Source: Armatimonadota bacterium
Lineage (GTDB): Bacteria > Armatimonadota > SYMT01
Assembly (NCBI GenBank): GCA_041690135.1
Contig: JAWLHY010000008.1
Location: 96,001-160,000 of the forward strand
Length of the DNA: 64,000 nucleotides
Reading direction: 5' to 3'
The first letter of the stretch is position 1, and each line of letters starts with the position of its first letter. This document shows, in pieces, positions 3,924 through 21,834 of the stretch. The notes under the pieces were generated by a model. The model did no database searches and was not told the DNA's origin. It saw nothing but the letters and a program-made list of their open reading frames with translations. The translations under genes were made by a program, and so were the position numbers.

Positions 3924-6355
3924 GTCCCCGCCTTCGGGTAGTGAAGGGATTCTTTTAGGGTCCGCAGCAGTTCGGCGGGGTCCGTGGGTTTGGGCAGGTA
4001 ATGGTCGAAGCCGGCAGCGCGGCCACGCTCTCGGCTTTCCGGCTCCGCGTAACCCGTAAGAGCGATCAGGACGGCATCCGCCGTCCGGGGATCGGCCCGA
4101 AGCGACTCCGTCACCCGGTACCCGTCCATCTCCGGCAAGCCGATGTCGCAGAGCACCACATGGGGTGTCCAGGTGTGAGCCAGTCCTAACCCCTCGGGCC
4201 CGGAGAACGCCAGCCGCACTTCGTAACCGGTGAGCTGCAGCAGGTCCTGGAGAGACTCCGCGGCGTCGCGGTTGTCCTCAATGATCAGCACCCGGCAGGG
4301 TCGCTCACTGGGGAGCGTGGGGGTTTGAACGGGTTCGTGTGGGATGGAGAGCTTGGCCACGGGCAGCGTCCGCAGCGGCAACCGGAGGACGAACTGGGCG
4401 CCGGGGCTGGGAGCGGGACTGGAGGCGAATACGGTGCCTCCGTGCAGTTCTATGATGCCCCTGACGAGGCTTAGGCCCAGGCCGAGCCCTCCGGTGGTGC
4501 GGGCCAACTCCTGCTCGCCCTGCACGAAGCTCTCCCAGATCCTTGGTAGCAGGTCCGCGGGAATGCCCACTCCCGTATCACGGACGACGATCCGCACCTG
4601 ATCGGTGCGATCCTCCTCCCGGCACAGTTCCACTTCGACCCGACCGCCGGCCGGGGTGAACTTGCCTGCGTTACTGAGGAGGTTGGCGACGGCCTGGCAC
4701 AAGCGGACCGGATCTCCATCCAAAAGCAAAGGCTCCCGCGGGAGGCGGACCTCCAGGATGAGGCCCTTGCCCTCGAGTTCGTCGCGGTAATCCTCCACGC
4801 ACTGGCGCACGATCTCCACCAGATTGACCGGTTCCAGTTGCAGCGAGAGCTTACCCTGGTTGATCCGGGAAACGTCGAGCAAGTCGGAGACTAACCGGGC
4901 CATATGGCGGGCCTGGCGCTGGATGATGGCCTCCTGGCGCTTCAGGAGAGGGTCGTTCGGGCCGTGGGCCTCCAGGACGGCGGCCGCGGTAACGATGGGC
5001 GCGAGAGGGTTCCGCAGCTCGTGGGCCAGCATCGCCAGGAATTCATCTTTCCGTCGGTTGGCCTCCCGCAGCTCTTCCTCAACGGCGCGCTGCGAGGTGA
5101 CATCCGTGTTGGTGCCGAACCAGCGCGTGACCTTACCCGTTTCGTCGCGGATTGGAATGGCGCGGGAAAGGAACCAGCGGTACTCACCGCTTTTGCTCCG
5201 CAACGGGAAGGTATCTTCCCAGACCTCGCCCGTGTCCCAGGAGCGCTGGATGCGCTCCACCACACGAAGCAAATGATCCGGATGGTGCACCTTCTGCCAG
5301 CCCCAGCCCTGCATCTCTTCTAGCGTGGTGCCAGTGTACTCAAACCAACGCCGGTTGTACCAGAAGATCCACCCGGTCGAGTCGGCCATCCACGCGAGCT
5401 GCGCAATGTTATCGGCCAGGGTCCGGAACCGTTCTTCGCTCTCGGACAGGGCCAGTGCGGCACGTCGTTGCTCGGTAATGTCCTTGAAGACGAGGGCGAA
5501 CCGTCCCCGTGGCGCTACGGGGGTGGCGAATACGTCGAACCAACGCTCCATCGCCTCCGAGCCGCTAACGAACCGCAGCGTTTCGCCGTCGAGGGCCACG
5601 TGGGCGTAAGTATTCACCCACTTCGGCTCCAGGTCCGGGACCAGTTCGTAGGCCGTTCTGCCCGTGGCGTCCCTCAGCCCGGTCATCTCCTCAAAGAGCG
5701 GGTTGACCTCCAGAAACCGGTAGTCCACCGGCCGGCCCTGGGCATCCTGGATTATCTCCGCAAGGCAATATCCCTCATCGATGGAGGAAAACAGGGCCCG
5801 GAATCGCTCCTCTCGCTCCCGCTGCGCCTCCTCGGCTTGCTGGGTTCCGGTCAGGTCTACCATGTTGACGACGTGCAGGATGACCCGCTCCGTGCGGTCA
5901 CGGATGGGTACGACACCGTACTTGATGAAACGCCGCTCTCCGCTGACACGGCGAATCAGGAGCACGTCGAAGTCGCGGACGTACTCCCCGCGCATTGCGC
6001 GCGCCAGCGGCCAATCCTCGAGTGGCATCGCGCTCCCGTCCGGATAACACAGCTCGAAGTACGCCACATAACGGTCCAGGTGATCGAACATCTCGGCTTC
6101 AGAAGCGAACCCGTGGATCCGCAGTCCTTCTGCATTCAGTGAGAGGATCGTGCCCTGTGGGTCCGTCAGACCAATGCCGACGGGAATACTCTCGATGACG
6201 GCTCGCAGCTTCTCCTGTTCCAAGCGCAGTGCTTCTTGCGCTTCGCGGAGTTCCTGAAGTTCGGTCAGGAGCTCACGGCCACATTCCGGCCCTGTTACGT
6301 CCGCGTCCGGGTGCGCTTCAGCGTTTGGTTCGTGATGGGGACGGGACTCCGGCAT
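3920..6355 (-). CDS. Cytoplasmic hybrid histidine kinase (3 PAS, HisKA, HATPase, REC)
   Basis: PAS/PAC repeats, FLAMLAHELRNPL, NLLSNAGKF, GGLGLGL, receiver CDIGLPEMDG. 4-nt ATGA overlap with the next kinase. Confidence 0.95.
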   Translation of the reverse strand: MPESRPHHEPNAEAHPDADVTGPECGRELLTELQELREAQEALRLEQEKLRAVIESIPVGIGLTDPQGTILSLNAEGLRIHGFASEAEMFDHLDRYVAYFELCYPDGSAMPLEDWPLARAMRGEYVRDFDVLLIRRVSGERRFIKYGVVPIRDRTERVILHVVNMVDLTGTQQAEEAQREREERFRALFSSIDEGYCLAEIIQDAQGRPVDYRFLEVNPLFEEMTGLRDATGRTAYELVPDLEPKWVNTYAHVALDGETLRFVSGSEAMERWFDVFATPVAPRGRFALVFKDITEQRRAALALSESEERFRTLADNIAQLAWMADSTGWIFWYNRRWFEYTGTTLEEMQGWGWQKVHHPDHLLRVVERIQRSWDTGEVWEDTFPLRSKSGEYRWFLSRAIPIRDETGKVTRWFGTNTDVTSQRAVEEELREANRRKDEFLAMLAHELRNPLAPIVTAAAVLEAHGPNDPLLKRQEAIIQRQARHMARLVSDLLDVSRINQGKLSLQLEPVNLVEIVRQCVEDYRDELEGKGLILEVRLPREPLLLDGDPVRLCQAVANLLSNAGKFTPAGGRVEVELCREEDRTDQVRIVVRDTGVGIPADLLPRIWESFVQGEQELARTTGGLGLGLSLVRGIIELHGGTVFASSPAPSPGAQFVLRLPLRTLPVAKLSIPHEPVQTPTLPSERPCRVLIIEDNRDAAESLQDLLQLTGYEVRLAFSGPEGLGLAHTWTPHVVLCDIGLPEMDGYRVTESLRADPRTADAVLIALTGYAEPESRERGRAAGFDHYLPKPTDPAELLRTLKESLHYPKAGT

Positions 6356-6657
6356 TCATGAACTCCAGATCGCTTCGGCACAGGCGTCGCTGCCGATCCG
6401 CTACGAAGCTAAGATAGTTTACGGCATGATCGGGAAGGGCGGATCGTCCTTCGAAACGTTGGTGAACGGGTTCGTCGGCCGCACCTTTTCGGATACTCCT
6501 GGATGGGAGCAGTGCCCCGGTAACTTGAGCGCGCCTTCCCTGAACGCATCCATTCATAGAGAGGAGTCCTGCCGGATCAGGCACAACAAGCAGGAGCGGA
6601 GTGGCGAACGGCGAGCCGGTGAGCGGAGATCTCGCCGCGATGTAAGGAGAGCAGGGG

Positions 6658-7950
6658 ATGGCGACGGACCGACGGCGGGTCGTAGTAACGGGCATGTCAA
6701 TCAACACCCCGCTTGGCGACGACCTGGACACCTTCTACGCGGCACTCCTCGCGGGCCGTTCGGCCATCACCCGGTGGAAGTTCTTCGAGCACGAGGGCGT
6801 CTACTCCAAGGTCGGCGGTGACCTCTCCGATTATGATTTCGGCGCGAAGCTCTCCGCACTGCGGGCGCGGCTTCCGGAAAGCCTGGGACTCCGGCTGCGG
6901 CAACTGTGCCGGAAAGCTCCGTTCTCCACGCGCCTTTCGATGCTGGCCGCGGCGGATGCCTGGCTGGATGCCGGGCTGGATGCGGGTATCGATCCGGCCC
7001 GCGGCGCGGTCCTGATTGGCGGGCACAACCTCAATACCCGGTACCTGATCGAGAACTACAACGTTTTTCGGGATGAGCCGGATTACATCGACTCGCAGGG
7101 AGCGTTGCTGACGCTGGATACGGACCATGCCGGCTCGGTGAGCGAGGTCCTGGGTTGGCACGGGGCGGCTTACACGATGGGTGGCGCATGCGCGAGCGCC
7201 AACCTCGCACTGCGGAGCGCCCTGGATGAGATCCGCTACCACGATCACGACATGGCGATGCTGGTCGGCGGCGTGCTCGATTTTACCGATATGGACCTTC
7301 ACGCGATGGCGCTCATCGGCGCCATCACCGTCCAGAGCTTCAATGACGATCCGGAGCGGGCCAGCCGTCCTTACGATGTGCGGCGGGAGGGGTTCGTCCC
7401 CTCTCACGGCACCGCCGGGCTGGTGCTGGAAGAATTGGAGCACGCGCGGGCCCGTGGCGCCCGGATCTACGCGGAAGTGCTGGGTTGCACCGCCACGGCC
7501 GACGGGTGTCACCTGCCTTCTCCTTCGACGGCGGGCCAGGCGCGGACGATCTCTCGCCTGTTGGATGAGACCAGGGTCGCGCCGGAAGAGGTCGACTTCG
7601 TCTCCGCGCACGCCACGTCCACGCCACTCGGGGATCTTTCCGAACTCCAGGCGATCAAACAGGTCTTCCAGGAGCACGCTTACCACCTCCGGATCAACGC
7701 GCCGAAGTCGATGCTGGGGCATACTTGCTGGTCGGCACCGGTGGTGGAAACGGTGGCGGCGCTCCTGCAACTGCGGGGCGGTCGGCTCCACCCCTCGATC
7801 AACATCGAGGAACTGGACCCGCAGGTCGATCTGGACATCTGCGCAGACGGACCCGTGGACCACGCGGCAAACGTAATCCTGAAGAACTCATTCGGCTTCG
7901 GCGGGCTGAACTGTTGTGCACTTTTCCGGCGGCTCGAGATGGCCGGTTAG
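6658..7950 (+). CDS. Free-standing beta-ketoacyl-ACP synthase (FabF/PksF-like KS) with active-site Cys retained
   Basis: RRVVVTG start, GGACASAN (catalytic Cys), SRPYDVRREGFV, HATSTPLGD, KSMLGH, NSFGFGG. AAGGAG RBS upstream. Confidence 0.93.
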   Translation: MATDRRRVVVTGMSINTPLGDDLDTFYAALLAGRSAITRWKFFEHEGVYSKVGGDLSDYDFGAKLSALRARLPESLGLRLRQLCRKAPFSTRLSMLAAADAWLDAGLDAGIDPARGAVLIGGHNLNTRYLIENYNVFRDEPDYIDSQGALLTLDTDHAGSVSEVLGWHGAAYTMGGACASANLALRSALDEIRYHDHDMAMLVGGVLDFTDMDLHAMALIGAITVQSFNDDPERASRPYDVRREGFVPSHGTAGLVLEELEHARARGARIYAEVLGCTATADGCHLPSPSTAGQARTISRLLDETRVAPEEVDFVSAHATSTPLGDLSELQAIKQVFQEHAYHLRINAPKSMLGHTCWSAPVVETVAALLQLRGGRLHPSINIEELDPQVDLDICADGPVDHAANVILKNSFGFGGLNCCALFRRLEMAG

Positions 7951-7966
7951 CGATTTCGGGGGCTCG

Positions 7967-8713
7967 ATGGTTTTCTTTGTCACGGGGGGATCGCGCGGGA
8001 TCGGATCCGAGATCGTCCTGCAGGCAGTGGCCGCCGGTCACGACGTGGCTTTTACCTACGTCCGGGACCAGGCAGCGGCGGAAGATGTGCTCCGGCGGGC
8101 GCGCGAGGTGCGCCCGGCCGGCCGGTGTGCCGCCTATCAACTGGACGTGGCCGATGCGGCCCAGGTGGAGCGGGTGGGCGACCGCGTGCTGGAAGACTTC
8201 GACACCGTGGACGCGGTGGTGAACTGCGCGGGGATCCGGCGCGATAACCTGGCGGTGTCGATGGCGGACGAGGAATGGGCGGAAGTCCTGGCGGCCAACC
8301 TTACGGGGCCGTTCTACGTCTGTCGCCAGTTCCTGCCGACGATGCTGGCGAACCGTTTCGGGCGGATCGTGAACATCTCCTCGGTCCAGTACAACGGGGG
8401 CACGGGGCAGGCCAACTACGCCGCGAGCAAGGCAGGTCTCCACGGCCTCACCCTGACACTGGCGAAGGAATACGGCCGGAAAGGGATCACGGCGAACGTC
8501 ATAGTGCCGGGGTTCTTCGAGACGGATATGACCCGGGATACGCTGCCCGACGCTCTCCCGGAACACTGGCGGAAGCACTGCCCGATGCCGGGAGGGCGGT
8601 TCGGGCGCCTCTCGGAGCTGGCGGGGACCGTGCTCTTCCTCACCTCGGAAGCCGGCGGCTTCATCAATGGCGAGATCCTGCACGTCACCGGCGGCCTCAA
8701 CCACACCCTCTGA
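7967..8713 (+). CDS. fabG: 3-oxoacyl-ACP reductase (FabG-like SDR)
   Basis: TGGSRGIG, NCAGI, NISS, GQANYAASKAG, PGFFETDMT. Start trimmed to ATG 7967. Confidence 0.88.
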   Translation: MVFFVTGGSRGIGSEIVLQAVAAGHDVAFTYVRDQAAAEDVLRRAREVRPAGRCAAYQLDVADAAQVERVGDRVLEDFDTVDAVVNCAGIRRDNLAVSMADEEWAEVLAANLTGPFYVCRQFLPTMLANRFGRIVNISSVQYNGGTGQANYAASKAGLHGLTLTLAKEYGRKGITANVIVPGFFETDMTRDTLPDALPEHWRKHCPMPGGRFGRLSELAGTVLFLTSEAGGFINGEILHVTGGLNHTL

Positions 8714-8726
8714 CCGGGAACCACTG

Positions 8727-9971
8727 ATGAGTTATCCTCCGCGCCCGGATCGCGTCGGTATCGAGAAGATCGCGGCCTACCCGTGCACGCTATCGCTGGA
8801 TCTCCGGCTCCTGGCGGAGAAGCGTGGGGACCCGCCGGACTATCCTCGGAACGAGCTGAACGTGGAGACACGCTCGGTAAACCCGCCCTGGGAAGACCCG
8901 GTCACCATGGCCGTGAATGCCGCACAGACACTGCTCGGCGCGGGGAATCCGGAAGAAATCGGTCTGGTGCTCGTCGGGACGGAGTCGTCCCCGGATTTCG
9001 GCAAACCGATCTCCTCCTACGTCCAGCGGTTCTGCGAGATCCCCGCGAATTGCCGGAACCTGGAGACCAAGCACGCGTGCTACAGCGGCACCGGAGCCTT
9101 GATGCTGGCCGCGCACTGGATAGCGTCCGGCCTGCACCGGGGGAAGAAGGCGCTGGTCATCACCACCGATCAGAGCCGGGTGCACCTGGAGAAGCGATGG
9201 GAGTACGTGCTCGGCGCCGGAGCGGTGGCGATGCTCGTGAGCGACCAGCCGGACGTGCTGGAACTGGAACTGGAGCACAACGGTTATTGGAGCGCCGAGC
9301 TGGCCGACACCTACCGTCCCACGTCCACCGCGGAGGTGGGGCACGCCGAAACCAGCCTCTTCGGATACCTCGAAGCGCTGGAGAACACGTATGAGGCCTA
9401 CCTCGCTCAAGCGGGACCGGTGGAGTACACCTCCCATTTCAAGAGACACATCTATCACGTCCCCTTTGGTGGGATGACCCTTCGCGCCCACCGGGCTCTC
9501 CTCCGGCGCGAGGGCATCACCCGGGCTTCCGAAGTGCGGGCCAGCTTCGAGGAGCGGGTGCGGCCGTCGCTGCATTACACCGCGCGGATGGGCGGCACGT
9601 ACGGCTCGGCCACTTTCCTCGCGTTGATGAGCCTGATCGACTCCAGCGACGATCTGGGGCCCGGCGATCGCATCAGTCTCTTCTCCTACGGGTCCGGCTC
9701 CTGCGCGGAGTTCTACAGCGCGCGCATCGGACCACGCGCGCGGGCGGTGGTGGGTGCGGCGGGGCTCGCGCGGGCGCTGGAGGAGCGGGAAACCCTCACC
9801 GTGGAGGCCTACGAGCAGATCGAGCGTGAACGCTTCGCGGCGATCGATCGGTGCGACTACACGCCGGACCTGGGCCTGCCCGGAGGACTCTATGCACGGA
9901 AGTATGCCGGATGCCGGCGGCTGGTGCTGGAAAGTGTCACCGGGTATCAGCGCAACTACGGGTGGAGCTGA
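8727..9971 (+). CDS. Hydroxymethylglutaryl-ACP synthase (PksG/HCS-type beta-branching enzyme)
   Basis: VGIEKIAAY, EDPVTMAVNAA, TESSPDFGK (Glu), ETKHACYSGT (Cys), YHVPF (His), FSYGSGSCAEFYS. Confidence 0.93.
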   Translation: MSYPPRPDRVGIEKIAAYPCTLSLDLRLLAEKRGDPPDYPRNELNVETRSVNPPWEDPVTMAVNAAQTLLGAGNPEEIGLVLVGTESSPDFGKPISSYVQRFCEIPANCRNLETKHACYSGTGALMLAAHWIASGLHRGKKALVITTDQSRVHLEKRWEYVLGAGAVAMLVSDQPDVLELELEHNGYWSAELADTYRPTSTAEVGHAETSLFGYLEALENTYEAYLAQAGPVEYTSHFKRHIYHVPFGGMTLRAHRALLRREGITRASEVRASFEERVRPSLHYTARMGGTYGSATFLALMSLIDSSDDLGPGDRISLFSYGSGSCAEFYSARIGPRARAVVGAAGLARALEERETLTVEAYEQIERERFAAIDRCDYTPDLGLPGGLYARKYAGCRRLVLESVTGYQRNYGWS

Positions 9972-9975
9972 ACGG

Positions 9976-10752
9976 ATGCGGCTCCACTGCGAAACCCGTG
10001 AGACATCTGTATGGCGTGTGCAGCTTGAGCCAAACGCCGAGGGACGCACGCTCCTGAACCCGGCCGGGCTGCGAGACCTCGAAGCCGTGCTGACGCGCCT
10101 GGAGGCGGCTGAGCACTGCCGCGTGCTGCTGCTGGAGGGCGTGCCGGGTGAGTTCTGCTCCGGGATGGACCTGCAAGCGGCCCTGGAGCGCCGGGAAGAG
10201 GTTGCCGATGATCTCCGGCGGTATGCGGGGTGCCTGCGGAGGCTGCGGGAGCTTGCCTGCGTAGTGGTAGCGGTGGCGGATGGTCGCGTGATGGGGGGCG
10301 GGGTCGGTCTCGCCGCCGTCGCCGACCTAGTGTTGGCAACGCCCCGGGCCTCGTTCGCCCTGCCGGAGCTGGCGCTGGGGCTGATTCCCTCCCTTGTGCT
10401 GGCGGTGCTCTCCGAGCGGATGCCGCCGCAAAAGGCGCGCCGCCTGGTGTTGACCGGACAGCCGATCTCAGCGGAAAAGGCCGAAGCATTTGGTTTGGTG
10501 GACCAGTTGGTGGAAATCGAGGCGCTGCCGCAAACCGTTTCGGGCCTGCTGCGCCAGCTCCTGCGAGAGGATCCGCGATCGGTCGCACGGCTGAAGCGAT
10601 TTTCCCGGGGATTGGAAGGTCGGCCACTGTCCGCGGCGCTCGAGGCCGGTTGGCGGCAAACGGCCGGCGACCTGGCGGACCCGGCCATCCGCGCCGGCCT
10701 CCAGGGGTATCTGGAGGGGGAGCTGCCCCCCTGGTTTGAGCGGCGCGCATGA
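9976..10752 (+). CDS. Enoyl-CoA hydratase-like dehydratase ECH1 (PksH-like)
   Basis: FCSGMDL, GGGVGLAAVADL, FALPELALGLIP crotonase motifs. Directly follows the HMG synthase. Start ATG 9976. Confidence 0.88.
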   Translation: MRLHCETRETSVWRVQLEPNAEGRTLLNPAGLRDLEAVLTRLEAAEHCRVLLLEGVPGEFCSGMDLQAALERREEVADDLRRYAGCLRRLRELACVVVAVADGRVMGGGVGLAAVADLVLATPRASFALPELALGLIPSLVLAVLSERMPPQKARRLVLTGQPISAEKAEAFGLVDQLVEIEALPQTVSGLLRQLLREDPRSVARLKRFSRGLEGRPLSAALEAGWRQTAGDLADPAIRAGLQGYLEGELPPWFERRA

Positions 10753-11501
10753 ATCCGATTCTCCTCGAAATAGACGCCGATGGGGTGGCGGTGCTCCACA
10801 TGCGCGACGTGGCGGGGCGAAACGCGTTCAGCCGGCCCTTCGTCGAGGCGCTGGTCGAAGGTTTGGGCGGACTCGCGGACGAGCGCGTCAAAGTCGCCGT
10901 GCTCCGGGGGCTGGACGACGTCTTCTGCGCTGGCGCAGACCGCGAATTGCTGCTCGAGCTGGCGGAGGGCCGCCTTAGCCCTTACGACCTGCTGCTCACG
11001 CGCACGCTGCTAGAGGTGCCGGTTCCGACGATCGCCGCCATGGCGGGCCACGCGGTGGGCGGCGGACTGGTCCTCGGGCTTGCCTGCGATATGGTGGTCC
11101 TGGCGCGCGAGAGCCGCTACGGCTGCAACTTCATGGATCTCGGCTTCACGCCGGGGATGGGCGCTACGGGCCTGCTCCAGGCCGCGGTCGGGGAATACCT
11201 GGCGGCGGAGATGCTTTACAGTGCCCGATATGTGCGGGGCTCGGAGTTGGAAGGGCGGTCCGGAGTCAACGCCGTGCTCCCCAAGGCGCAGGTGTTGGAA
11301 CGCGCGCTGTCCCTGGCCGCGCGGATCGCCGGGATGGAGCGATATGCCCTCCGTATGCTCAAAGAAGCCCTCGTCACTCCCCGTCGTCGCGCGTTCGAGG
11401 AAGCGCGCGCGGTGGAGACGCGGATGCATGAAACCTGTTTCGCCCGTCCCGAGGTCCGGCAGCGGATCCGGGAGAATTATCCGGACCTGGAACGAAACTG
11501 A
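10749..11501 (+). CDS. Enoyl-CoA hydratase-like decarboxylase ECH2 (PksI-like)
   Basis: AMAGHAVGGGLVLGLACD, NFMDLGFTPGMGAT (PksI-type signature), C-terminal MHETCF His. Confidence 0.9.
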   Translation: MNPILLEIDADGVAVLHMRDVAGRNAFSRPFVEALVEGLGGLADERVKVAVLRGLDDVFCAGADRELLLELAEGRLSPYDLLLTRTLLEVPVPTIAAMAGHAVGGGLVLGLACDMVVLARESRYGCNFMDLGFTPGMGATGLLQAAVGEYLAAEMLYSARYVRGSELEGRSGVNAVLPKAQVLERALSLAARIAGMERYALRMLKEALVTPRRRAFEEARAVETRMHETCFARPEVRQRIRENYPDLERN

Positions 11502-12238
11502 TGGTGCGCGACTTCCAAGAACGAGCGGTGTACGTGGCCGGGTGCGGGTGCGGGCCCGGCCCGGCGGTGGCGCTAGCTTTTTCCCGCGCGGGAGCGCGAG
11601 TCTACTTCGCGCCCGGCTGCAGGGCGGTTTCCGAGAGGGCACAACGGGACAACCTTGCCATAACAGTCGGCCGGTATGTGGTCGTATTCGAATCCGGTAA
11701 CCCGGAGGCGGAAGTGGCGGAGTTTGCTGCTTCCGCAAGATCCGCAGGGTCGCCGGATGATGCCGCACAGATCGACATCTTTGTCTGGTGTGCATGCTCC
11801 ACGCCGCCCAGTGATATGCAGCCAGGCGGTTTCGAACGGCTGCAAGAAGCGGTGGGAGAAGACAGTTGGCCGTTCGTCGCGCGGCTCCACGCTCTTCGGA
11901 AGGCAAATGGCCGTTACCCCCGCTATGCGGTTGCGCTGGCCGCACCGCTTGAAGGTAATCCTGACGGCGCCGCGACACTGGCGACGGAGGTGTTGGAAAC
12001 GCTCGTCCGGTATCACGCCACACACCTCCGCCCGGAGGGCGTGCGGGTCAACGCCGTGCGCGCGGCCGGTGGAGAGACCTCCGTCTCCCCACGTGAAGTT
12101 GCCGGTACGGTCCTCGCCCTCTGCAGCGGCCTCCTGGATGCAATGTCCGGCCAGGTCCTCCGGGTGGGGTCGGCATCACCTGCCGGGATGAGTAGCTGGC
12201 TGGCTGACCCGTCATCCGAGAAAGGAGCTTCCGGATGA
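11501..12238 (+). CDS. Degenerate SDR, paralogue of the FabL-like enoyl reductases, lacking catalytic Tyr/Lys
   Basis: Shares SWP...RYPRYAVAL...LETLVRY...GVRVNAVR...LCSGLLDAMSGQVL with 12235 and 16804. The Gly motif is GCGCGPG and there is no YxxxxxxK. Confidence 0.75.
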   Translation: MVRDFQERAVYVAGCGCGPGPAVALAFSRAGARVYFAPGCRAVSERAQRDNLAITVGRYVVVFESGNPEAEVAEFAASARSAGSPDDAAQIDIFVWCACSTPPSDMQPGGFERLQEAVGEDSWPFVARLHALRKANGRYPRYAVALAAPLEGNPDGAATLATEVLETLVRYHATHLRPEGVRVNAVRAAGGETSVSPREVAGTVLALCSGLLDAMSGQVLRVGSASPAGMSSWLADPSSEKGASG

Positions 12239-13083
12239 ACCCGAACGATTTCCGGGGCCGGGGAGTACTGGTTACGGGGGGAACCCAGGGGATCGGCCTG
12301 GCGGTGGGCCTCGCTTTCGGGCGGCTCGGCGCCGACGTCTTCCTGACCCATCGCTGGGGCTCCGCGGACGAAGCGGAACTCCGGGAGCGGTTCCGCGAGG
12401 TAGGCGCGGCGCCTCCGTCCATCCTGGAGGCGGACGTTTCCCAGGAAGAGGATACCTGCGCCGTGATGGAGCAGATCCGCGAGCACTGCGGCCGTCTCGA
12501 CGTGCTGGTGAGCAACGTCTCCTTCGCCCGGATTGCCGCCGAGCCGGCCAGCCTGCGCTGGCGGGACCTGACCCGCGGCTTACGGTATAGCGCCTGGCCG
12601 TTGGTGGAGTACCTGCAGGCGTGTCGCCGTGAGTTGGGATGCTACCCTCGCTACGCCGTGGCTCTCTCGTCCCGCGGGCCGGACATGTTCCTTCCCGGCT
12701 ACGACCTGGTAGCGGCCAGTAAGACGGTGCTGGAGATGCTCTGCCGGCAGCTGGCGACGGAGTTGCGAGAAGAGGGAGTCCGGGTGAATGCCCTCCGCGC
12801 TAACCCGGTCGATACGCGCTCCCTGGCTGCGACGTTCGGTCCCGAGTTTGCGGCGTTCTGCCGAAAGTATTACGGCGACGACTACCTGGTCCTGCCGGAA
12901 GAAGTTGCCGACGCGGTGGTGGCGCTCTGCAGTGGCTGGATGGACGGGGTCTCCGGCGAGGTGCTGTTCGTCGATCGCGGCTGTAGCTTTTCAGACAACG
13001 TGGCCCGGCTTTACACGGAGCGAGCCCAATTGGGCCTGGAGGTGGAAGCCGATTTCTCGGAACCTATCGATACGAAAGGATGA
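12235..13083 (+). CDS. Enoyl-ACP reductase-like SDR (FabL/FabI-type)
   Basis: TGGTQGIG; YDLVAASK (Y-x6-K spacing of enoyl-ACP reductases); GVRVNALR. Confidence 0.8.
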   Translation: MNPNDFRGRGVLVTGGTQGIGLAVGLAFGRLGADVFLTHRWGSADEAELRERFREVGAAPPSILEADVSQEEDTCAVMEQIREHCGRLDVLVSNVSFARIAAEPASLRWRDLTRGLRYSAWPLVEYLQACRRELGCYPRYAVALSSRGPDMFLPGYDLVAASKTVLEMLCRQLATELREEGVRVNALRANPVDTRSLAATFGPEFAAFCRKYYGDDYLVLPEEVADAVVALCSGWMDGVSGEVLFVDRGCSFSDNVARLYTERAQLGLEVEADFSEPIDTKG

Positions 13084-13355
13084 AGATGATCACACGGGAA
13101 GCGGTCTTTGAAGTCGTAAAGCGGAACCTGGGGGAAGTGGTGGAGGACCTGGAAGGGGTGGAGATCGATCCCAACCAGAGCATGGTCGAACTGGGCGCCA
13201 ACAGCCTCGACATCGTCGAGGTTGTCTCCTGCAGCATGCGCGAGTTGAAGATCAAAGTGCCCCGCGCGGAACTGTCGAAGCTCAAGAACATCGGGGAACT
13301 GGTGGATCTCCTCTACCGAGTAGCCCGCGAAAAGGAAGATCAGGGCGCCGCCTGA
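13080..13355 (+). CDS. Acyl carrier protein (AcpK/donor-ACP-like)
   Basis: Small protein with LGANSLD phosphopantetheine site. GANS is typical of beta-branching donor ACPs. Confidence 0.92.
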   Translation: MKMITREAVFEVVKRNLGEVVEDLEGVEIDPNQSMVELGANSLDIVEVVSCSMRELKIKVPRAELSKLKNIGELVDLLYRVAREKEDQGAA

Positions 13356-13374
13356 CCGGGCGGATACCGGCACC

Positions 13375-14898
13375 ATGCGCATTGCAGTGATCGGGGGAGG
13401 GGCGGCCGGGCTCACGGCAGCCTGGCGCCTGTCCCGGAAACACGAGGTGTCGCTTTACGAAGCGAACTCCTGGCTGGGCGGGCACGCGCGAACCGTGGAG
13501 GTTCCGGGACCGGGCAGGACTGTCCCTGTGGATATGGGGTTCCTCGTATTCCACGAGTGGATCTACACGAACTTTTCCGCGCTGCTCGCACATCTCGGCG
13601 TGGCTGCGGTGCCGACCCCGCCTCAGACCACTGCCGTGTCGTTCCCGGGTGGCGCGTGGAAAACGGGACTCGCGACGCCGTTCTGGAGCACCGTAAGCGA
13701 GGAAGCGGATCGTTTCCACCGGATGCTGCCCTCAGTTGTGGCCGATCCGGTCCGGTATGCCGGGTTGAAACTGGGCGACTTCCTGGACGGGAACGGGTTC
13801 TCGGAAGATTTCAAGTACAAGTGCGTGTGTCCGGTCGGCGGCTCTCGCTTCGTGACCCGGCGGGGCGTGCTGGAACTGTCGGTGCTGGAGTTTGCGGCCG
13901 GCTTTGGTCCGGTGGCGCTCTACTCCATCATCCAACCGACCTTCTGGCGGACCGTCGGGGGCGGGATGCGGGAATACATCGACCGCCTGGCAGGGGAGAT
14001 CACCGGGGAAGTTCACCCTTCCACACCCGTCCGGTCCGTCCAGCGGTCCCGCGGCGGCATCACCGTGACCCTGGCCGGTGGCCAGGTGGAGACGTTCGAT
14101 CAGGTGGTGGTGGCGACCGGCGCGGATGTGGCCCTCCGGTTGCTGGCCGATCCCAGCCCCGAGGAAAAGCTCCTGTTGGGTTCTTCCTACCAGGAGACGC
14201 GGGTGGTGCTCCATACGGACCCTTCCGTGATGCCGGACGACCGGAGCCTCTGGGCGGCAGACACCTACGTCACGCACGAGACCGCGCCCCCCTACCAGCG
14301 GGGCTGGGTGAGTTACTATCTGCCGGACACACAGCCCTGGGTGGATTTCGACATCTTCGTGACCGTGGGTGCTCCGGAAGGGCTGATCGCCCCCGACCGG
14401 ATCCTGGAGGAGCACCGGTGGCGCCACCTGGAGGCGGACAGTGTGCAGTTGCTGCGCTCCATGGAATTGCACCGGATCCAGGGGAAGCAGCGGACCTGGT
14501 TCTGCGGAGAGTACGCGGGAATGTACGGCGGTCACGAGTCCAGCGTGGTGACCGGCCTCGCCGTGGCCGCCGCGTTGGGCGCCGACTACCCCTTCACGGA
14601 AAATGCCGCGGCCTACCGGGTGTTCCTGGACACGGCCGTCAACCATATGCGCGTGCTGGACGGTCCGCGTCCGGCGGCCGATGCCACCTGGTGGCCGCCG
14701 GTGCTGGGTGAGGTGAACGCCCGGATGATCCGGGAAATCGCACGGGAAGAAGTGCGCGGGGTACTCCGGCAAAAGCTGCCCAGTCCCCTGGCGGCCCTAC
14801 TGGACCGGCTGCCCTGGATCGAGGATACCCTGGTCCGGCAGATCGCAGGGCGGATCTCGCTGCTGGAAGAGGCGGTCCGGCGCCAGCCGGAGGCCTGA
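13375..14898 (+). CDS. FAD-dependent oxidoreductase (COG2907/amine-oxidase-like, lipid-modifying family)
   Basis: IAVIGGGAAGL...YEA...LGGHART, VDMGFLVF, LHTDPSVMP, QGKQRTWFCGEY. Confidence 0.85.
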   Translation: MRIAVIGGGAAGLTAAWRLSRKHEVSLYEANSWLGGHARTVEVPGPGRTVPVDMGFLVFHEWIYTNFSALLAHLGVAAVPTPPQTTAVSFPGGAWKTGLATPFWSTVSEEADRFHRMLPSVVADPVRYAGLKLGDFLDGNGFSEDFKYKCVCPVGGSRFVTRRGVLELSVLEFAAGFGPVALYSIIQPTFWRTVGGGMREYIDRLAGEITGEVHPSTPVRSVQRSRGGITVTLAGGQVETFDQVVVATGADVALRLLADPSPEEKLLLGSSYQETRVVLHTDPSVMPDDRSLWAADTYVTHETAPPYQRGWVSYYLPDTQPWVDFDIFVTVGAPEGLIAPDRILEEHRWRHLEADSVQLLRSMELHRIQGKQRTWFCGEYAGMYGGHESSVVTGLAVAAALGADYPFTENAAAYRVFLDTAVNHMRVLDGPRPAADATWWPPVLGEVNARMIREIAREEVRGVLRQKLPSPLAALLDRLPWIEDTLVRQIAGRISLLEEAVRRQPEA

Positions 14899-14964
14899 CG
14901 CGAGGGGCCGGGACGGGTCCGGAGCGTGCCGTTTGAGCTGGGTATGAGAGGAGCATGCGAGAGT

Positions 14965-16224
14965 ATGAGCGGGGCGATGGAAGAACAGCTTTCGGTAACC
15001 GATTTCTACCTGGGCTCCGAGACGGATCCCCTTGCTCCACCGCCGGAGTTCGCGGAGTGGCTGCGAGCAACGGAGCCAGCCTGGAGCCTCTATGAGCGAT
15101 CGTTGTGCGCGGCGCCTACCGCGCGGACGCTTCTGGAAGTGCGAGGGCAACCCCATCCGGTCATCAACCTGACCTCGTACAACTACCTGGGGCTTTCGTG
15201 CCATCCGGAGGTGATAGCCGCGGCCCGCGAGACACTGGAAAGCTGGGGCACCGGCGCTTGTGGCTCGGCGATCCTCTCCGGGATGACCGTGCTTCACCGG
15301 GAGTTGGAACGCCAGATCGCCGGCTTGCTGGGCCGGGAGACCACCCTTTTGTTCAGCAGCGGCTTCGGCGGGGCATTGGGGCTCACTTCCGGGTTCCTCC
15401 GCCGGGGGGACGTCGCGGTGGTGGATGAACGGGTGCATATTTCCTTGATGGATGGCGTCCGACTTTCCGGGGCGCAGACGGCGACGTTCACTCACAACGA
15501 CCCGGCCGCTCTCGACCAGGTGCTGGCACGTTACCCGAACCGGCGCCGGGTGGTAGTCGTGGAAGGTCTTTATTCGATGGATGGCGATCTTCCCGATCTG
15601 CCGGCTCTGTTGGAAGTAGCCGAGGCGCATGGAGTGGGGCTGGTGATTGATGAAGCCCATTCCTTCCTCGCGTTTGGCGAGACGGGAGGTGGCATCACCG
15701 AACAGGCCGGCGTGCAGGACCGGGTCCGGTTGTTCTACGGAACCTTCTCCAAGGCGCTCGGCGGGATTGGTGGCTTCGTATCCGGTCCGGCGGATGCCCT
15801 GGGCTACATGCGCCTCTTTTCGCACCCCTATGCCTTCTCATGCGCCCTTCCCCCCCTGACGGTAGCCGGCTTGCTGGCAGGGCTCCGGGTGGCCACGCGC
15901 GATCGGACCCTCCGGGCGCGGTTATTGGAGAACGGCGAGTATTTCCGGAGGGGTCTGCAATCGATCGGTATCGACACCGGTCTTTCCACCACCCACGTGG
16001 TGCCGATCGTCCTCGGGCGGCGCCGGGACCTGCTCTACACGGCGGGGCACCAACTGGTAGAGCGCGGGTTGTTCCTCGCGCCGGTGGACTATCCCGCGGT
16101 GCCGGAAGACCAGGTGCGGTTCCGCGCCTCCGTGACGGCGATGCATACCCGGGAGGACCTGGACGAAGCGCTGCAAATCATCGAGGACGTGATCGCCCGG
16201 CCGCTACGCCGGGGCGTGGGCTAA
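14965..16224 (+). CDS. PLP-dependent alpha-oxoamine synthase (serine palmitoyltransferase-like)
   Basis: NLTSYNYLGL, GTGACGSAILSG, VHISLMDG, FTHND, EGLYSMDGD, IDEAHS, GTFSKALGGIGG (PLP Lys). Exact start uncertain (14926/14965/14977). Confidence 0.88.
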   Translation: MSGAMEEQLSVTDFYLGSETDPLAPPPEFAEWLRATEPAWSLYERSLCAAPTARTLLEVRGQPHPVINLTSYNYLGLSCHPEVIAAARETLESWGTGACGSAILSGMTVLHRELERQIAGLLGRETTLLFSSGFGGALGLTSGFLRRGDVAVVDERVHISLMDGVRLSGAQTATFTHNDPAALDQVLARYPNRRRVVVVEGLYSMDGDLPDLPALLEVAEAHGVGLVIDEAHSFLAFGETGGGITEQAGVQDRVRLFYGTFSKALGGIGGFVSGPADALGYMRLFSHPYAFSCALPPLTVAGLLAGLRVATRDRTLRARLLENGEYFRRGLQSIGIDTGLSTTHVVPIVLGRRRDLLYTAGHQLVERGLFLAPVDYPAVPEDQVRFRASVTAMHTREDLDEALQIIEDVIARPLRRGVG

Positions 16225-16248
16225 CCGAAGAGTTGTGAGAGGACGAAC

Positions 16249-16782
16249 ATGGACCCGGAAGAACTGCGAGCCCTGATCCGTACGGCCCGACGAAAGCCGC
16301 TGTTCGATCCTACGGTCGCCGGGGATCCTCGCGACCTGGGGCGAGAGCAGTTGGTCCGGATTTTGCCTCACCGGGGTACGATGCTGCTGCTGGACGGCAT
16401 CGACCGGGTGGACCTCGAAGGCGGTCGTATCGTCGGCCGCCGCCGCGTGGCGGCGGCCGATCCGGTGTTCGGCGACCATTTCCCGGGCTACCCGGTCTAT
16501 CCGGGGGTCCTCCAGGTGGAGATGATGGGGCAACTGGGTCTCTGCCTGGCCGTTTTCACGGATCGGGGCGCCGTTGAACTGCCGGAGGAGGGGAGAGCCT
16601 TGCAGGTGCGCCTCCTCCGGATCCACCATGCGCTCTTTGTGCAGGAGGTCCGTCCGGATGACCGCCTGACAGTGCTGGCGAAGGTGCTGCACGAGGACGG
16701 AACCACGATGATCTGTACGGGCCAGTTGCTTCGGGACGGGGAAGTGTTAAGTATCGCGGTGCTCGAGGCTTTCCGGGCCTAG
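16249..16782 (+). CDS. fabZ: 3-hydroxyacyl-ACP dehydratase (FabZ/FabA hot-dog fold)
   Basis: ILPHRGTMLLLD and FGDHFPGYPVYPGVLQVEMMGQ. Confidence 0.88.
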   Translation: MDPEELRALIRTARRKPLFDPTVAGDPRDLGREQLVRILPHRGTMLLLDGIDRVDLEGGRIVGRRRVAAADPVFGDHFPGYPVYPGVLQVEMMGQLGLCLAVFTDRGAVELPEEGRALQVRLLRIHHALFVQEVRPDDRLTVLAKVLHEDGTTMICTGQLLRDGEVLSIAVLEAFRA

Positions 16783-16803
16783 TCGGGAAAGAGGGGAGAG
16801 GGC

Positions 16804-17610
16804 GTGTTCGACTTACGGGGGAAGACAGTCCTGCTTACCGGCGGGACCATGGGGATCGGCCTCGCCACCGCGCTCAAGTTCGGAAGCGTGGGGGCGCGCA
16901 CGATCCTCACCTGCCGGTTCGGCTCGGCGGATGAGGACGAGGTCCGCAGCCAGTTCGCCGCAATAGATGCTCCCATGCCGCTGATCGTTCAGGCGGACGT
17001 GGCGAACGAGGAGGACACGGTTGCGCTGATGGACGAGATCGCGCGGGAGCACGACGGGGTCGATATCTTCATCTCCAACGTCTCGTTCGCGCTCCGGATC
17101 TCCGGGCTGGAGGACTACGATAAACGCGCTTTACTCCGGGGCATTGAGTACACGTCATGGCCCCTCTGGGCTTATACGCGGGCTCTCCGGGAGCGGTTCG
17201 GACGGTATCCGCGCTATGTCGTCGGGCTTTCCAGCGACGGCCCCGACTCCTACTACCTGAACTACGACTTCGTGGCGATGTCCAAGTCGCTTCTGGAAAC
17301 CCTCTGCCGTTACATGAATTACCGGCTCTTCGATGAAGGGGTGCGGGTAAACGTGGTCCGCTCGCGGATGATCGTGACTGAATCGATGCTCGCCACCTTT
17401 GGCGAGGATTTCGCGGAGTACCTGCGCCGCCTGAAGGTGGAGGAACTGAGCATCAGCCCCGATGACGTGGCCGGGGTGGTAGTCTCGCTCTGCAGTGGCT
17501 GGATGGACGCGGTCGCCGGCCAGGTGATCCGGGTCGACCGCGGCACGGCGTTCTTCGACAACACCATGGGGTTCTTCGAGCGGATCGAGCAAAGGCATGA
17601 GCCGCTCTAA
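16804..17610 (+). CDS. Enoyl-ACP reductase-like SDR (FabL/FabI-type), paralogue of 12235
   Basis: TGGTMGIG; YDFVAMSK (Y-x6-K); GVRVNVVR. GTG start with GGAG-rich RBS. Confidence 0.8.
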   Translation: MFDLRGKTVLLTGGTMGIGLATALKFGSVGARTILTCRFGSADEDEVRSQFAAIDAPMPLIVQADVANEEDTVALMDEIAREHDGVDIFISNVSFALRISGLEDYDKRALLRGIEYTSWPLWAYTRALRERFGRYPRYVVGLSSDGPDSYYLNYDFVAMSKSLLETLCRYMNYRLFDEGVRVNVVRSRMIVTESMLATFGEDFAEYLRRLKVEELSISPDDVAGVVVSLCSGWMDAVAGQVIRVDRGTAFFDNTMGFFERIEQRHEPL

Positions 17611-18481
17611 GGTAGCGCCCCGGGAAAGCCGGTACTTCCATGCCAGGCATGTGCTGGTGACCGGCGGCTCCAGCGGGATCGGGCTGGCGGTCGCGGAAGG
17701 CATTGCCGCGCGGGGCGGTCGGGTCACGCTGATCGCCCGTGATCCAAGCCGGCTCGAGGAAGCGCGCCACCGCATCGAGAGCCGCTACCCGGCATCCGTG
17801 GTGGGTCTTCTGGAGTTGGACGTCGCCGAGGAAGAGGCGGTCCATTCAACGGTGCCCGCCTACCTCAACGAGCATCCGGCGTGGGGATTGGTCAACAGTG
17901 CCGGCATCACCTTGCCGGGACGGGCGCTGGAATTGGGCTCGGAAGACTTCCGCTCCCAGATGCAGGTGAATTACTTCGGGACGGTCGCGATGTGCCGGAC
18001 CGTGGTGCCGGACCTCATCGCCCGGGGCGAAGGCCACGTGGTGAACGTCGGTTCCCTGCTGTCGGTGATGTCCATCTACGGGCACTCCGCGTACTCGGCG
18101 AGCAAGTTCGCGGTTTATGCCTTCACCGACGCGCTCCGGGCGGAAATGACCCGGAACGGGGTACGGGTCAGCCTGCTGCTGCCGGGGGACACGGATACTC
18201 CGCAACACCAGCATGAGCGCCGGTACCTGCCGCCGGAAACCCGCGCAATTGCCGGCTCCGTGAAACTGCTGTCGGCGGAGCAGGTGGCGGCCGAGCTATT
18301 GCGGGGAATGGCGCGAGGGGCCTTCGAGATCATCCCCGGCACCGAGGCCCGCGCCGCAGTTCTAGCCTACCGCTGGTTTCCGGACCTGGCCCGCTGGGTG
18401 TGGTCCCGCGCCGAACGCCGGGCGATGAGCATTTCCGGGGAGTCCGCTACGGACCTTCCCACCGAACAGAAGGGTCGGTGA
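17597..18481 (+). CDS. 3-ketodihydrosphingosine reductase-like SDR (KDSR/TSC10-like)
   Basis: HVLVTGGSSGIG, VTLIARD, QVNYFGT, YSASKFA, and PGDTDTP...E...PETRAI...EQVA, matching the KDSR-subfamily pattern (PPDTDTP). Confidence 0.8.
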   Translation: MSRSKVAPRESRYFHARHVLVTGGSSGIGLAVAEGIAARGGRVTLIARDPSRLEEARHRIESRYPASVVGLLELDVAEEEAVHSTVPAYLNEHPAWGLVNSAGITLPGRALELGSEDFRSQMQVNYFGTVAMCRTVVPDLIARGEGHVVNVGSLLSVMSIYGHSAYSASKFAVYAFTDALRAEMTRNGVRVSLLLPGDTDTPQHQHERRYLPPETRAIAGSVKLLSAEQVAAELLRGMARGAFEIIPGTEARAAVLAYRWFPDLARWVWSRAERRAMSISGESATDLPTEQKGR

Positions 18482-18577: not shown

Positions 18578-19369
18578 TTACTCCAGGTAACGGCGGACCC
18601 GGTTCTTCCAACCGGTGAGCCACCGCTTCTCACCGCGGGCGGGGGGAGAGTTCTCCACGCGGCGCGTGAGGACGGACTCCGCGCTGGCGGCGAACTCCTT
18701 TACCGGCCCCGGTCCCTTCCCCTTCATGCCCGCCAGGACCTGGAGGAGGCCCCAGCCCTGGCCCTGGTAGCGCTCGGTCTCCTTGATGCCTTCGCCTTTG
18801 AAGTTGACGTAGTCGATCAGGGCGAAGGTACCGGCGCTGCTGCCCAGCATCCGCTGGAACTGGGCTCTAACGTTCTCCCGCTGCGCCGCGGGCGCGGCCT
18901 CCAGCATCTTGGGGAGGCTCGCTTCCATGCGCTGGACGATAAAGCGGCTCTGGAGCGAGAGGGTGCGAGAGAGGAGATTCCGCAGCTCCTTCATGCGGGG
19001 GCTCTGGAAGTCCCGCTCGAACTCCGCCTTCGTGGACCACGGGCAGGGCCTATCGAGGGCCCATTCCGGGACCGAAGCACCCTCCTCCGCCAGGAACCGG
19101 GCGAGTCGCGGGAAGGCCTCGTCGAAGGGTCCACTGTAGCCTTTCGGATACCAGATAAAGTGACCGATGCCGAGGGAAGCAAACTGCTCGCCGGCATTCC
19201 AGGAGGTCAGGCCGTCGATCCGTCCACCGCACTCGTTCTGCCAGATTCGCTTCCCAATGGTGGTCAGTTGCTGGTCCGTCAATTCAACAGCGCAGGCGGC
19301 ACTCGTGCCGGCGATGCACGATGCCAGTAAGAGCACGCGAAGGATATGGAGAATAACTGTAGGGCTCAT
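18578..19369 (-). CDS. Secreted hypothetical protein, possibly lysozyme-like fold
   Basis: Signal-peptide-like N-terminus; IWQNECGG...SLGIGHFIWYP; IDYVNFKGEG; WxxGWxNR C-terminus. ATGA-coupled to the upstream kinase. Confidence 0.7.
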   Translation of the reverse strand: MSPTVILHILRVLLLASCIAGTSAACAVELTDQQLTTIGKRIWQNECGGRIDGLTSWNAGEQFASLGIGHFIWYPKGYSGPFDEAFPRLARFLAEEGASVPEWALDRPCPWSTKAEFERDFQSPRMKELRNLLSRTLSLQSRFIVQRMEASLPKMLEAAPAAQRENVRAQFQRMLGSSAGTFALIDYVNFKGEGIKETERYQGQGWGLLQVLAGMKGKGPGPVKEFAASAESVLTRRVENSPPARGEKRWLTGWKNRVRRYLE

Positions 19370-21372: not shown

Positions 21373-21834
21373 AGGTCCGAAAGTTCCATGTCAGCTACGG
21401 TCAACATATCAGTTTACCAGAAGTGACGTGACACGATGGAAGGTATCGCTCGATCTGTCACGAACGATGCCGATTGCCCCGAATCAGGAACAATGCCTCC
21501 GGAGCGGAATGCATCGGGAGATGACCCCCTGCATCTCCGCTGCCGCCTGTGTAGCCGGCTAACGAGCATCCCTTCGTCGTCAGGATGATAGGACGAGCGT
21601 CAGGGGAGCGAGAGAACAAGGGCCGGAGCGCTAGAGAAGTAGAGGATTAAGACTCGAACGACCGGGGTAAAACCCCAACGAGCGTCTATCCTCTCCACGC
21701 GAGTGTGGTTGCGGTATCGCCGGGTCGGGGGAGGGCTGATGCCCACCTGGGTTGATGACAACAAGTGTCACCCGGAGACTGCCTGAATTCTCGATCCCAT
21801 GCACTCCTATCTAATCCATTCACGCGTACCCCAC

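Follow-up and report, generated by a model that had tools for sequence, protein, structure and literature searches.

A polyketide-type beta-branching cassette among discrete fatty-acid synthase genes: a candidate pathway to methyl-branched amino lipids

What does a beta-branching cassette do in an operon that contains no polyketide assembly line? Published descriptions place branching by an HMG (3-hydroxy-3-methylglutaryl) synthase in polyketide assembly lines; here, in a 64-kb stretch of an Armatimonadota genome (the window; G000:C8:96001-160000, G+C ~65%), the cassette is wired into a discrete fatty-acid synthase (FAS) with a condensing ketosynthase (KS) and an amino-acid-condensing exit, an alpha-oxoamine synthase (AOS). 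The genes form a compact 11.8-kb operon at positions 6658-18481 of the window, and related loci with this arrangement are spread over many phyla, chiefly in organisms that have not been cultured. We propose, with a probability that we put at about 0.55, that the operon encodes a self-contained, carrier-protein-bound line predicted to make a methyl-branched amino lipid.

Gene content of the operon

Thirteen co-directional open reading frames lie on the + strand at 6658-18481 (Table 1); we identified their products with Pfam and NCBIfam and placed the start codons at the beginning of the family alignments. Successive gaps between the genes are 16, 13, 4, -4, -1, -4, -4, 19, 27, 24, 21 and -14 nt, and both flanks lie on the opposite strand, with a hybrid kinase gene ending at 6355 on one side and genes for a secreted protein and a kinase beginning at 18578 on the other. 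The short gaps and the opposite-strand neighbours indicate that the 13 genes form one operon-like unit. An initial annotation of this DNA had listed 13 tightly coupled genes of these families and had seen no modular polyketide synthase (PKS) or non-ribosomal peptide synthetase (NRPS) in the window; both observations hold, and the sole KS match and sole PP-binding match on contig C8 are the operon's own. A scan with the sigma-70 consensus found no site upstream of the operon, a result of little weight in this host, and the count of terminator-like sites (4 seen, against a shuffled mean of 7.6) was uninformative.

The cassette itself consists of the KS, an HMG synthase (HMGS), two crotonases (ECH1 and ECH2) and an acyl carrier protein (ACP). 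Among solved relatives, the HMGS is closest to CurD (277 bits) and PksG (236 bits), with HMG-CoA synthases at 202 bits or less, and its Glu, Cys and His motifs are conserved family-wide in an alignment of related loci. ECH2 scores 156 bits against PksI and 140 bits against the ECH2 of CurF; ECH1, the weaker of the two assignments, scores 80 bits against the PksH homologue 3hp0. The best models for ECH1, the ACP and the KS are PRK07112, PRK07117 and PRK07103, which we take to derive from bacillaene genes; all three matches are under their cut-offs, that of the ACP by 4 bits, and for the KS the polyketide model (353 bits) outscores fabF (293 bits).

Two features of this cassette concern how the chain is carried and built. 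A Trp flag after the Ser presumably marks the acceptor ACPs of modular PKSs, and the operon's single ACP has no Trp at Ser+6, nor has any of the 38 aligned sequences (38/38). In the KS, the catalytic Cys (within GGACAS) and the two His motifs are intact, and they are intact in all of the aligned sequences (39/39), which makes the enzyme competent to elongate; its counterpart in polyketide cassettes, KS0, is described as condensation-incompetent (PMC11522927). By these scores and motifs, the cassette proteins are of polyketide descent and are rewired around one donor-type ACP and an elongating KS.

Discrete KS, ketoreductase, dehydratase, enoyl reductase (ER) and ACP genes are all present in the operon and together make up a type II FAS set, catalytic motifs included; FabG, FabZ and the terminal classical short-chain dehydrogenase/reductase (SDR), here called g13, all retain theirs. 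Three SDRs had initially been read as FabL-like. Two of them, ER1 and ER2, keep the Y-x6-K spacing that is found in 66 of the 67 aligned ER-type SDRs of the family, and the third, at 11501-12238, is the sole exception, without the Tyr, the Lys or the Gly-rich motif TGGxxGIG. Because its position holds an intact ER in other loci, it is probably a decayed duplicate. Two ER copies are present in 28 related loci and one in 8; two copies would fit a division in which one enzyme acts on ordinary enoyl-ACP and the other on the trisubstituted beta-methyl-enoyl-ACP. The operon has no gene for a malonyl-CoA:ACP transacylase (AT), and the genome's one AT match adjoins housekeeping fab genes on contig C1.

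A PKS elsewhere in the genome, for which the cassette might work, was sought with a Pfam KS search of the whole genome. Within the 97% completeness of the assembly (9.1 Mb, 25 contigs, not closed), only four KS matches were found, all of them single FabF-type genes (the longest frame, 568 aa, is a FabF), and there is no modular PKS. The genome has ten carrier-domain matches. Five of them form a cluster of PP-binding matches at G000:C1:987916-997250, in successive frames of 640-1379 aa on a contig with no KS match, and have the look of an NRPS-like or adenylation-carrier gene array.

The AOS carries the lysine for pyridoxal phosphate (PLP) in a GTFSK motif, which, like the general AOS residues, aligns with the solved serine palmitoyltransferase (SPT). 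In NCBIfam it scores 310 bits with bioF, 302 bits with a Kbl-related model and 291 bits with SPT, all below the equivalog cut-offs; of the three SPT models, the best gives 291 bits (cut-off 500) and the other two 271 bits (cut-off 640) and 228 bits (cut-off 670). With solved structures the lead of SPT is small (SPT 3a2b 224 bits, BioF/KBL enzyme 221 bits, CqsA 87 bits). As every score is below its equivalog cut-off and bioF, Kbl-related and SPT models score similarly, the early designation of this enzyme as an SPT is not established. The terminal SDR had likewise been called similar to 3-ketodihydrosphingosine reductase (KDSR) and is better described as a generic classical SDR: the KdsR equivalog NF049977 gives 107 bits against a cut-off of 400 and ranks 23rd, with generic SDR models scoring higher. 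Since a separate BioF and a separate Kbl, both over their cut-offs, are encoded elsewhere in the genome, the operon's AOS is a third, dedicated enzyme.

The remaining gene, g09, encodes what had been described simply as a flavoprotein; this can be narrowed to the LkcE/UfaD branch of the amine-oxidase fold, with 210 bits to LkcE over residues 2-416. Three residues reported to be strictly conserved in LkcE-type cyclases, E64, Y182 and R326 (PMC6162330), align to Leu, Glu and Tyr in g09 by a hand reading of one pairwise alignment that assumes a +4 tag offset. The chemistry of g09, as predicted from its family, could be either C-N oxidation or chain desaturation.

Table 1. Features of the operon and its upstream region (positions in the window)
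Feature	Position	Strand	Evidence and remarks
Divergent intergenic region, presumed promoter	6356..6657	.	Minus-strand hybrid kinase on one side, operon on the other; promoter role presumed from this layout only
KS, condensation-competent, PksF-type descent	6658..7950	+	Pfam ketoacyl-synt N and C domains; PRK07103 353 bits
FabG-type 3-oxoacyl-ACP reductase	7967..8713	+	adh_short_C2 185 bits; TIGR01830 239 bits; YAASK; alternative start GTG 7916
HMG-ACP synthase, polyketide type (HMGS)	8727..9971	+	Nearest CurD/PksG; alternative start 8667
ECH1-type crotonase (dehydratase)	9976..10752	+	ECH_1 125 bits; PRK07112 125 bits (cut-off 250)
ECH2-type crotonase (decarboxylase)	10749..11501	+	PRK07110 279 bits (cut-off 215)
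Degenerate ER-like SDR, probable pseudo-enzyme	11501..12238	+	adh_short_C2 38 bits; no NCBIfam match
ER1, enoyl-ACP reductase-type SDR	12235..13083	+	FabL PRK08063 best, below cut-off; FabI models match too; Y-x6-K
ACP, donor (AcpK/CurB) type, the operon's only ACP	13080..13355	+	PP-binding domain; PRK07117 74.9 bits (cut-off 79)
FAD oxidoreductase g09, LkcE/UfaD branch of amine-oxidase fold, 507 aa	13375..14898	+	LkcE 210 bits; ~90 aa C-terminal extension
AOS, PLP-dependent	14926..16224	+	Aminotran_1_2 170 bits; GTFSK lysine aligned
FabZ-type 3-hydroxyacyl-ACP dehydratase	16249..16782	+	FabA-like domain 65 bits; FabZ models 73-76 bits, below cut-offs
ER2, enoyl-ACP reductase-type SDR	16804..17610	+	FabL PRK08063 best NCBIfam model; Y-x6-K
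Classical SDR g13 (YSASK), candidate ketone reductase for AOS product	17597..18481	+	adh_short 152 bits; best NCBIfam models generic

Co-inheritance and variants across related loci

Searching one genome per species with the HMGS as query returned 48 loci, many of them on short contigs. Three spirochaete loci were left out of the counts (HMGS ~30% identical, and no other operon gene matched at the thresholds used except for a FabG-like match in L048), leaving 45. By tblastn, FabG is found in 43 of these, KS, ECH1 and ECH2 in 40 each, FabZ in 39, the ACP in 37, an ER in 36 and the AOS in 33; a g13-like SDR is found in 5 and the flavoprotein in none. The conservation of FabG and FabZ argues for ordinary elongation cycles, and that of HMGS, ECH1 and ECH2 for at least one branching cycle. 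When only loci with full flanks are considered (at least 5.5 kb upstream and at least 6.5 kb downstream of HMGS; n=26), the AOS is present in 23. Of the two computational outcomes that would have counted against the initial annotation, a PKS elsewhere that uses the cassette and a cassette with no conserved link to the AOS, neither was seen. The SDR that the annotation had called KDSR-like is seldom matched. In the 33 loci with an AOS, the ACP is matched once per locus, and in 20 of them this match is no more than 1.2 kb upstream of the AOS; the AOS is the sole plausible release enzyme of the conserved core.

The usual gene order is AOS, AT, FabZ, KS, FabG, HMGS, ECH1, ECH2, ER, ER, ACP, and in an alternative arrangement the AOS is placed after the ACP. 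The AT between the AOS and FabZ is FabD-like; it is present in 31 loci and absent from the window. The architecture is therefore not unique to this organism: the window holds one variant of a widespread family that normally has its own acyltransferase. Carriers are labelled Nannocystis, Polyangiaceae, Kofleriaceae, Haliangiales, Sandaracinaceae, Phycisphaeraceae, Nitrospinota, Bacteroidetes, Eremiobacterota/Xenobia, Burkholderiales, Cellvibrionaceae, Methylomicrobium and Bdellovibrionales, and the phyla of the family include Myxococcota, Planctomycetota, Nitrospinota, Bacteroidota and Pseudomonadota.

Among relatives of the host, HMGS was found in 1 of the 60 searched, a genome of the same family (51% identity). 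Metagenome proteins predominate among the nearest homologues (61-64% identity), and those with a named source come from Nannocystaceae, with one labelled Planctomycetota; by source names, the cultured Nannocystis pusilla, Enhygromyxa salina and Pseudenhygromyxa carry close homologues. This patchy distribution argues against a housekeeping role, and the operon has probably been transferred. A role in primary metabolism or cofactor synthesis was considered and rejected on the same count of 1 in 60 and on the genome's possession of its own BioF and Kbl. In a relative of the same family (G006), the cassette is on a short contig and an AOS of 34% identity on another; the assembly is too fragmentary to use, and no g09 homologue was found in it.

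A tree of 35 AOS sequences separates two deep clades. The window belongs to class I, the upstream type (15 loci plus the window, support 99/99); class II, the downstream type, comprises 16 loci with support 100/100 on a long stem. The AOS of L042 groups with BioF and Kbl, outside both cluster-linked clades. This Sandaracinaceae locus also has ~3 kb between its KS and FabG genes (L042 5104-9252).

Accessory genes of the related loci include phosphopantetheinyl transferases, a GNAT family in 5 loci and HpnA-like extended SDRs beside the AOS in 6. The GNAT family gives weak Pfam GNAT matches only, and no solved relative was found at E < 0.04; one candidate member, L006:2389-3522, was rejected because it groups with UDP-glucose pyrophosphorylase-like proteins (Atlas). 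After the cassette, loci from Methylomicrobium (L043 13907-16067) and Cellvibrionaceae (L037 13882-16055) have genes for a membrane fatty-acid desaturase and a NAD_binding_4 acyl reductase-type protein. Exporter genes (RND, OEP, HlyD, FtsX) occur in related loci, and in L043 RND and OEP efflux genes precede the cassette operon. Taken together, the accessory genes suggest a long-chain, sometimes N-acylated, exported or membrane lipid. The genome studied here has 22 weak homologues of the HpnA-like SDRs, none of them near the operon, and no N-acyltransferase candidate was matched in it with two queries, the GNAT family of 5 loci and an Acetyltransf_6 protein of the metagenome contig L054.

That contig carries, in order, FabZ, KS, FabG, HMGS, ECH1, ECH2, a flavoprotein and a g13-like SDR, followed by the convergent gene for the Acetyltransf_6 protein. 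Its flavoprotein is 65% identical to g09 over the full, equal length, including the C-terminal extension, and its SDR is 37% identical to g13. Because the same pair follows the cassette there, the flavoprotein and SDR are a recurring addition to the cassette and not an accident of one genome. What sets the sub-variant in the window apart is that it has no AT, that no N-acyltransferase was found, that one ER is dead, that a flavoprotein gene separates the ACP gene from the AOS gene, and that the last gene encodes a classical SDR.

Predicted pathway and competing explanations

From gene content, catalytic motifs, the absence of a PKS and co-inheritance, all of them directly observed, we infer a series of chemical steps together with chain length, amino acid and order of tailoring. 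Every intermediate would be carried by the one donor-type ACP. The condensing KS, of PksF descent, would add malonyl units, probably loaded by the housekeeping FabD, a loading route that we propose because the cluster's own AT is missing. FabG, FabZ and an ER would process most beta-keto intermediates in the manner of fatty-acid synthesis; in at least one cycle, HMGS, ECH1 and ECH2 would form a beta-methyl-enoyl group from the beta-keto group, and the second ER would saturate it. The AOS would then Claisen-condense the methyl-branched acyl-ACP with an amino acid, giving a 2-amino-3-keto lipid and releasing the chain. The terminal SDR would probably reduce this lipid to an amino alcohol, and the flavoprotein of the LkcE/UfaD family would oxidise or desaturate the product. 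The core of this scheme, a cassette acting on a dissociated FAS with the AOS taking acyl-ACP, was already put forward in the initial annotation and passes all the computational tests available (no PKS in the genome, parts co-inherited across phyla, a condensation-competent KS); its SPT and KDSR labels are not established.

How often the cassette acts is a further matter. We tentatively prefer, at odds short of even, a version of the pathway in which it acts once, on acetoacetyl-ACP, to give an isovaleryl-ACP primer from acetate alone and, from that primer, an iso-branched long-chain base. A single branching event on acetoacetyl-ACP is favoured because CurD, the nearest solved HMGS, uses acetoacetate, shares the HMG-CoA synthase active site and takes acetoacetyl on a donor ACP. 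The substrates of CurD, acetate and acetoacetate, are described as the same as those of HMG-CoA synthase, with an active site in common, and CurD accepts acetoacetyl on the donor ACP in vitro with a 3-fold lower efficiency (PMC11522927). Branching in mid-chain or repeated branching may also be compatible with the sequence. An iterative version, which we regard as improbable, would have the KS and the cassette alternate with reductive cycles on the one ACP, giving a poly-methyl, isoprenoid-like long-chain base from acetate alone, without mevalonate, methylerythritol phosphate or branched amino acids. This base would not be N-acylated; the flavoprotein would desaturate or oxidise it beside a methyl branch and the SDR would reduce it, and the free lipid could possibly be a signal for the flanking hybrid kinases.

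Several points weigh against the proposal of a methyl-branched amino lipid. The product is a prediction from gene content, and the position and number of the methyl branches are not readable from sequence. The use of a donor-type ACP as acceptor is suggested by analogy with one in-vitro precedent, and an operon that lacks the AT of 31 related loci relies on the assumption that FabD stands in. As the AOS is below all equivalog cut-offs, its substrate could be serine, glycine, alanine or another compound, and with two deep AOS clades and an outlier the head group may differ between loci. The AOS was not found in three of the 26 full-flank loci (L003, L009 and L014), and the terminal SDR is generic, with matches in only 5 of 45 loci. 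Because the two queries returned no N-acyltransferase candidate, a ceramide is not predicted here.

One competing explanation gives the cassette a partner at another site in the genome, a modular, trans-AT PKS, and makes the FAS and AOS genes mere neighbours. All five cassette proteins are indeed of polyketide type, and the assembly, at 97% complete and not closed, leaves some room for a missing gene cluster; however, the genome's four KS matches are all single FabF-type genes, and on contig C1, with its cluster of five carrier domains, no KS was matched. The operon's ACP, moreover, is without the Trp that we take to mark an acceptor. Co-inheritance of the FAS and AOS genes with the cassette extends over 45 loci and several phyla, and the KS differs from the KS0 described for PKS cassettes (PMC11522927) in having its Cys, so that we consider a distant PKS partner very improbable. 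A different explanation accepts the operon as self-contained and disputes its product: a small diffusible signal and not a membrane lipid. The AOS would condense a short branched acyl-ACP, the flavoprotein would oxidise the amino ketone to a diketone or imine, the SDR would yield an alpha-hydroxyketone resembling CAI-1 or LAI-1, or dimerisation would yield a pyrazine, and the flanking hybrid kinases would sense the product. The chemistry of CqsA and the route to pyrazines by an AOS and an oxidase provide the background to this idea. An AOS, a flavoprotein of amine-oxidase fold and an SDR do occur together in the window, three hybrid histidine kinases flank the operon (one with a hydrophobic N-terminal input region of ~300 aa), and the two queries gave no N-acyltransferase in the genome. 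Yet the AOS is far from CqsA (87 bits to the solved enzyme versus 224 to SPT) and scores 194 bits with the autoinducer-synthase model NF005526, whose cut-off is 428; FabG in 43 and FabZ in 39 of 45 loci imply reductive elongation and not a C5 product; and the kinases, which gave generic hybrid-kinase matches only, are not conserved neighbours in the 45 loci. We therefore think a signal unlikely.

The last alternative alters one step of the amino-lipid pathway and not the whole: g09 would be a UfaD-like desaturase acting on the acyl chain beside a methyl branch, not an amine oxidase, and the product would be an unsaturated branched base. The metagenome contig L055 carries, at 7324-13500, genes for a ChrR-like anti-sigma factor, an ECF sigma factor, a SnoaL-like protein, an SDR, an FAD oxidoreductase, a DUF1365 protein and a CMAS methylase. 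Its FAD protein shares 33% identity with g09 (169 bits, residues 2-406), and the order SDR, FAD protein, DUF1365, CMAS beside the ECF sigma and ChrR genes matches the description of ufaD, which immediately precedes ufaO, a DUF1365 gene, in an operon of the furan fatty acid pathway under the control of ChrR; UfaD is described there as a desaturase that prefers a methyl-branched acyl substrate (PMC7380195). The replacement of the three LkcE cyclase residues described above (PMC6162330) points the same way. Against this, the link to UfaD is the synteny of one metagenome contig with a published description and not the UfaD sequence, LkcE is the higher-scoring match to g09 (210 bits), neither a DUF1365 gene nor a methylase gene adjoins g09 in the window, and the residues were mapped by hand in a single pairwise alignment. 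We hold a desaturase role to be possible and incline, on balance, away from it.

The genes around the operon are of several kinds. The hybrid histidine kinase/response-regulator genes are at 1218-3923 (-), 3920-6355 (-) and 19366-21372 (-); two of the products have PAS domains, and the hydrophobic N-terminal region of the third has no Pfam match, NCBIfam giving only generic hybrid-kinase models. The gene at 18578-19369 (-) is convergent with the operon; its 263-aa product has an N-terminus resembling a signal peptide and matched nothing in Pfam or NCBIfam, and there is a 4-nt overlap between the start of this gene and the stop of the kinase gene upstream. Farther downstream are genes for a DUF1559/N-terminal-methylation protein at 21799-22605 (+), of a kind associated with Planctomycetota, and an S8 subtilase at 22650-24473 (+). 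At 24553-25509 (-), 6 kb downstream of the operon, lies a PhyH gene (phytanoyl-CoA dioxygenase family, no NCBIfam match), whose family includes enzymes that act on 3-methyl-branched acyl chains.

Novelty and comparison with known systems

Within the literature searched, we found no paper that links an HMG-synthase (HCS) cassette with an AOS or a sphingolipid enzyme, in agreement with the first impression that no cluster of this architecture has been characterised. In this family, an HCS cassette has been transferred to a type II FAS whose KS condenses and whose exit is an AOS; the version with the flavoprotein-SDR pair, which lacks an AT and an N-acyltransferase, stands apart as a sub-variant. 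If the proposed pathway is correct, methyl-branched amino lipids or sphingoid-like bases derived solely from acetate should exist as a class, and this would bear on how branched lipids in environmental samples are read, on the evolution of bacterial sphingolipid synthesis and on the engineering of branched chains without a megasynthase.

The preferred single-branching version has a precedent in carbon logic. Myxobacteria have a leucine-independent route to isovaleryl-CoA in which HMG-CoA synthase is followed by dehydration, decarboxylation and reduction. The sequence of intermediates would be alike, with acetoacetyl plus acetate giving an HMG thioester and then 3-methylglutaconyl, 3-methylcrotonyl and isovaleryl groups; the myxobacterial route uses CoA thioesters and other decarboxylase and reductase families, whereas the enzymes here are ACP-dependent and of polyketide type. 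With CqsA and LqsA, the genes of which stand beside sensor kinases, the operon shares an AOS-family condensation of an acyl thioester with an amino compound, but the match is weak by both scores given above and the kinases here are generic.

The closest relatives of the cassette are AcpK, PksF, PksG, PksH and PksI of bacillaene and CurB-CurF of curacin, with which it has five protein types in common. The chemistry is presumed to be alike, comprising an acetate aldol addition to a beta-keto thioester, dehydration and decarboxylation. In contrast to those cassettes, there is no modular PKS here: one donor-type ACP is present with no Trp-flagged acceptor ACP, and the cassette is set among FabG, FabZ and ER genes with off-loading by the AOS. 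Their KS0 is described as condensation-incompetent, whereas the KS of the operon keeps its Cys (PMC11522927).

The flavoprotein resembles both LkcE, of lankacidin biosynthesis, and UfaD in fold and family. The preference of UfaD for methyl-branched substrates fits a methyl-branching operon, but its DUF1365 and methylase partners are missing here (PMC7380195); the three cyclase residues of LkcE, going by the hand-read alignment, are not kept (PMC6162330). From both, g09 differs by its C-terminal extension of ~90 aa, which it has in common with its L054 orthologue.

Finally, the operon can be set beside the bacterial sphingolipid pathway of Caulobacter, in which Spt, an ACP, bCerS and CerR act together. 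That system, like the one described here, combines an AOS with a dedicated ACP and a nearby reductase (PMC11087976, PMC11324152), and the GNAT proteins and extended SDRs of some related loci echo the scheme (PMC11087976). The best solved relative of the AOS is a bacterial SPT (224 bits), although the three SPT cut-offs are failed. In place of an epimerase-fold reductase the operon has a classical SDR, and the acyl chain would come from a private FAS with its own branching cassette rather than from the cellular pool.

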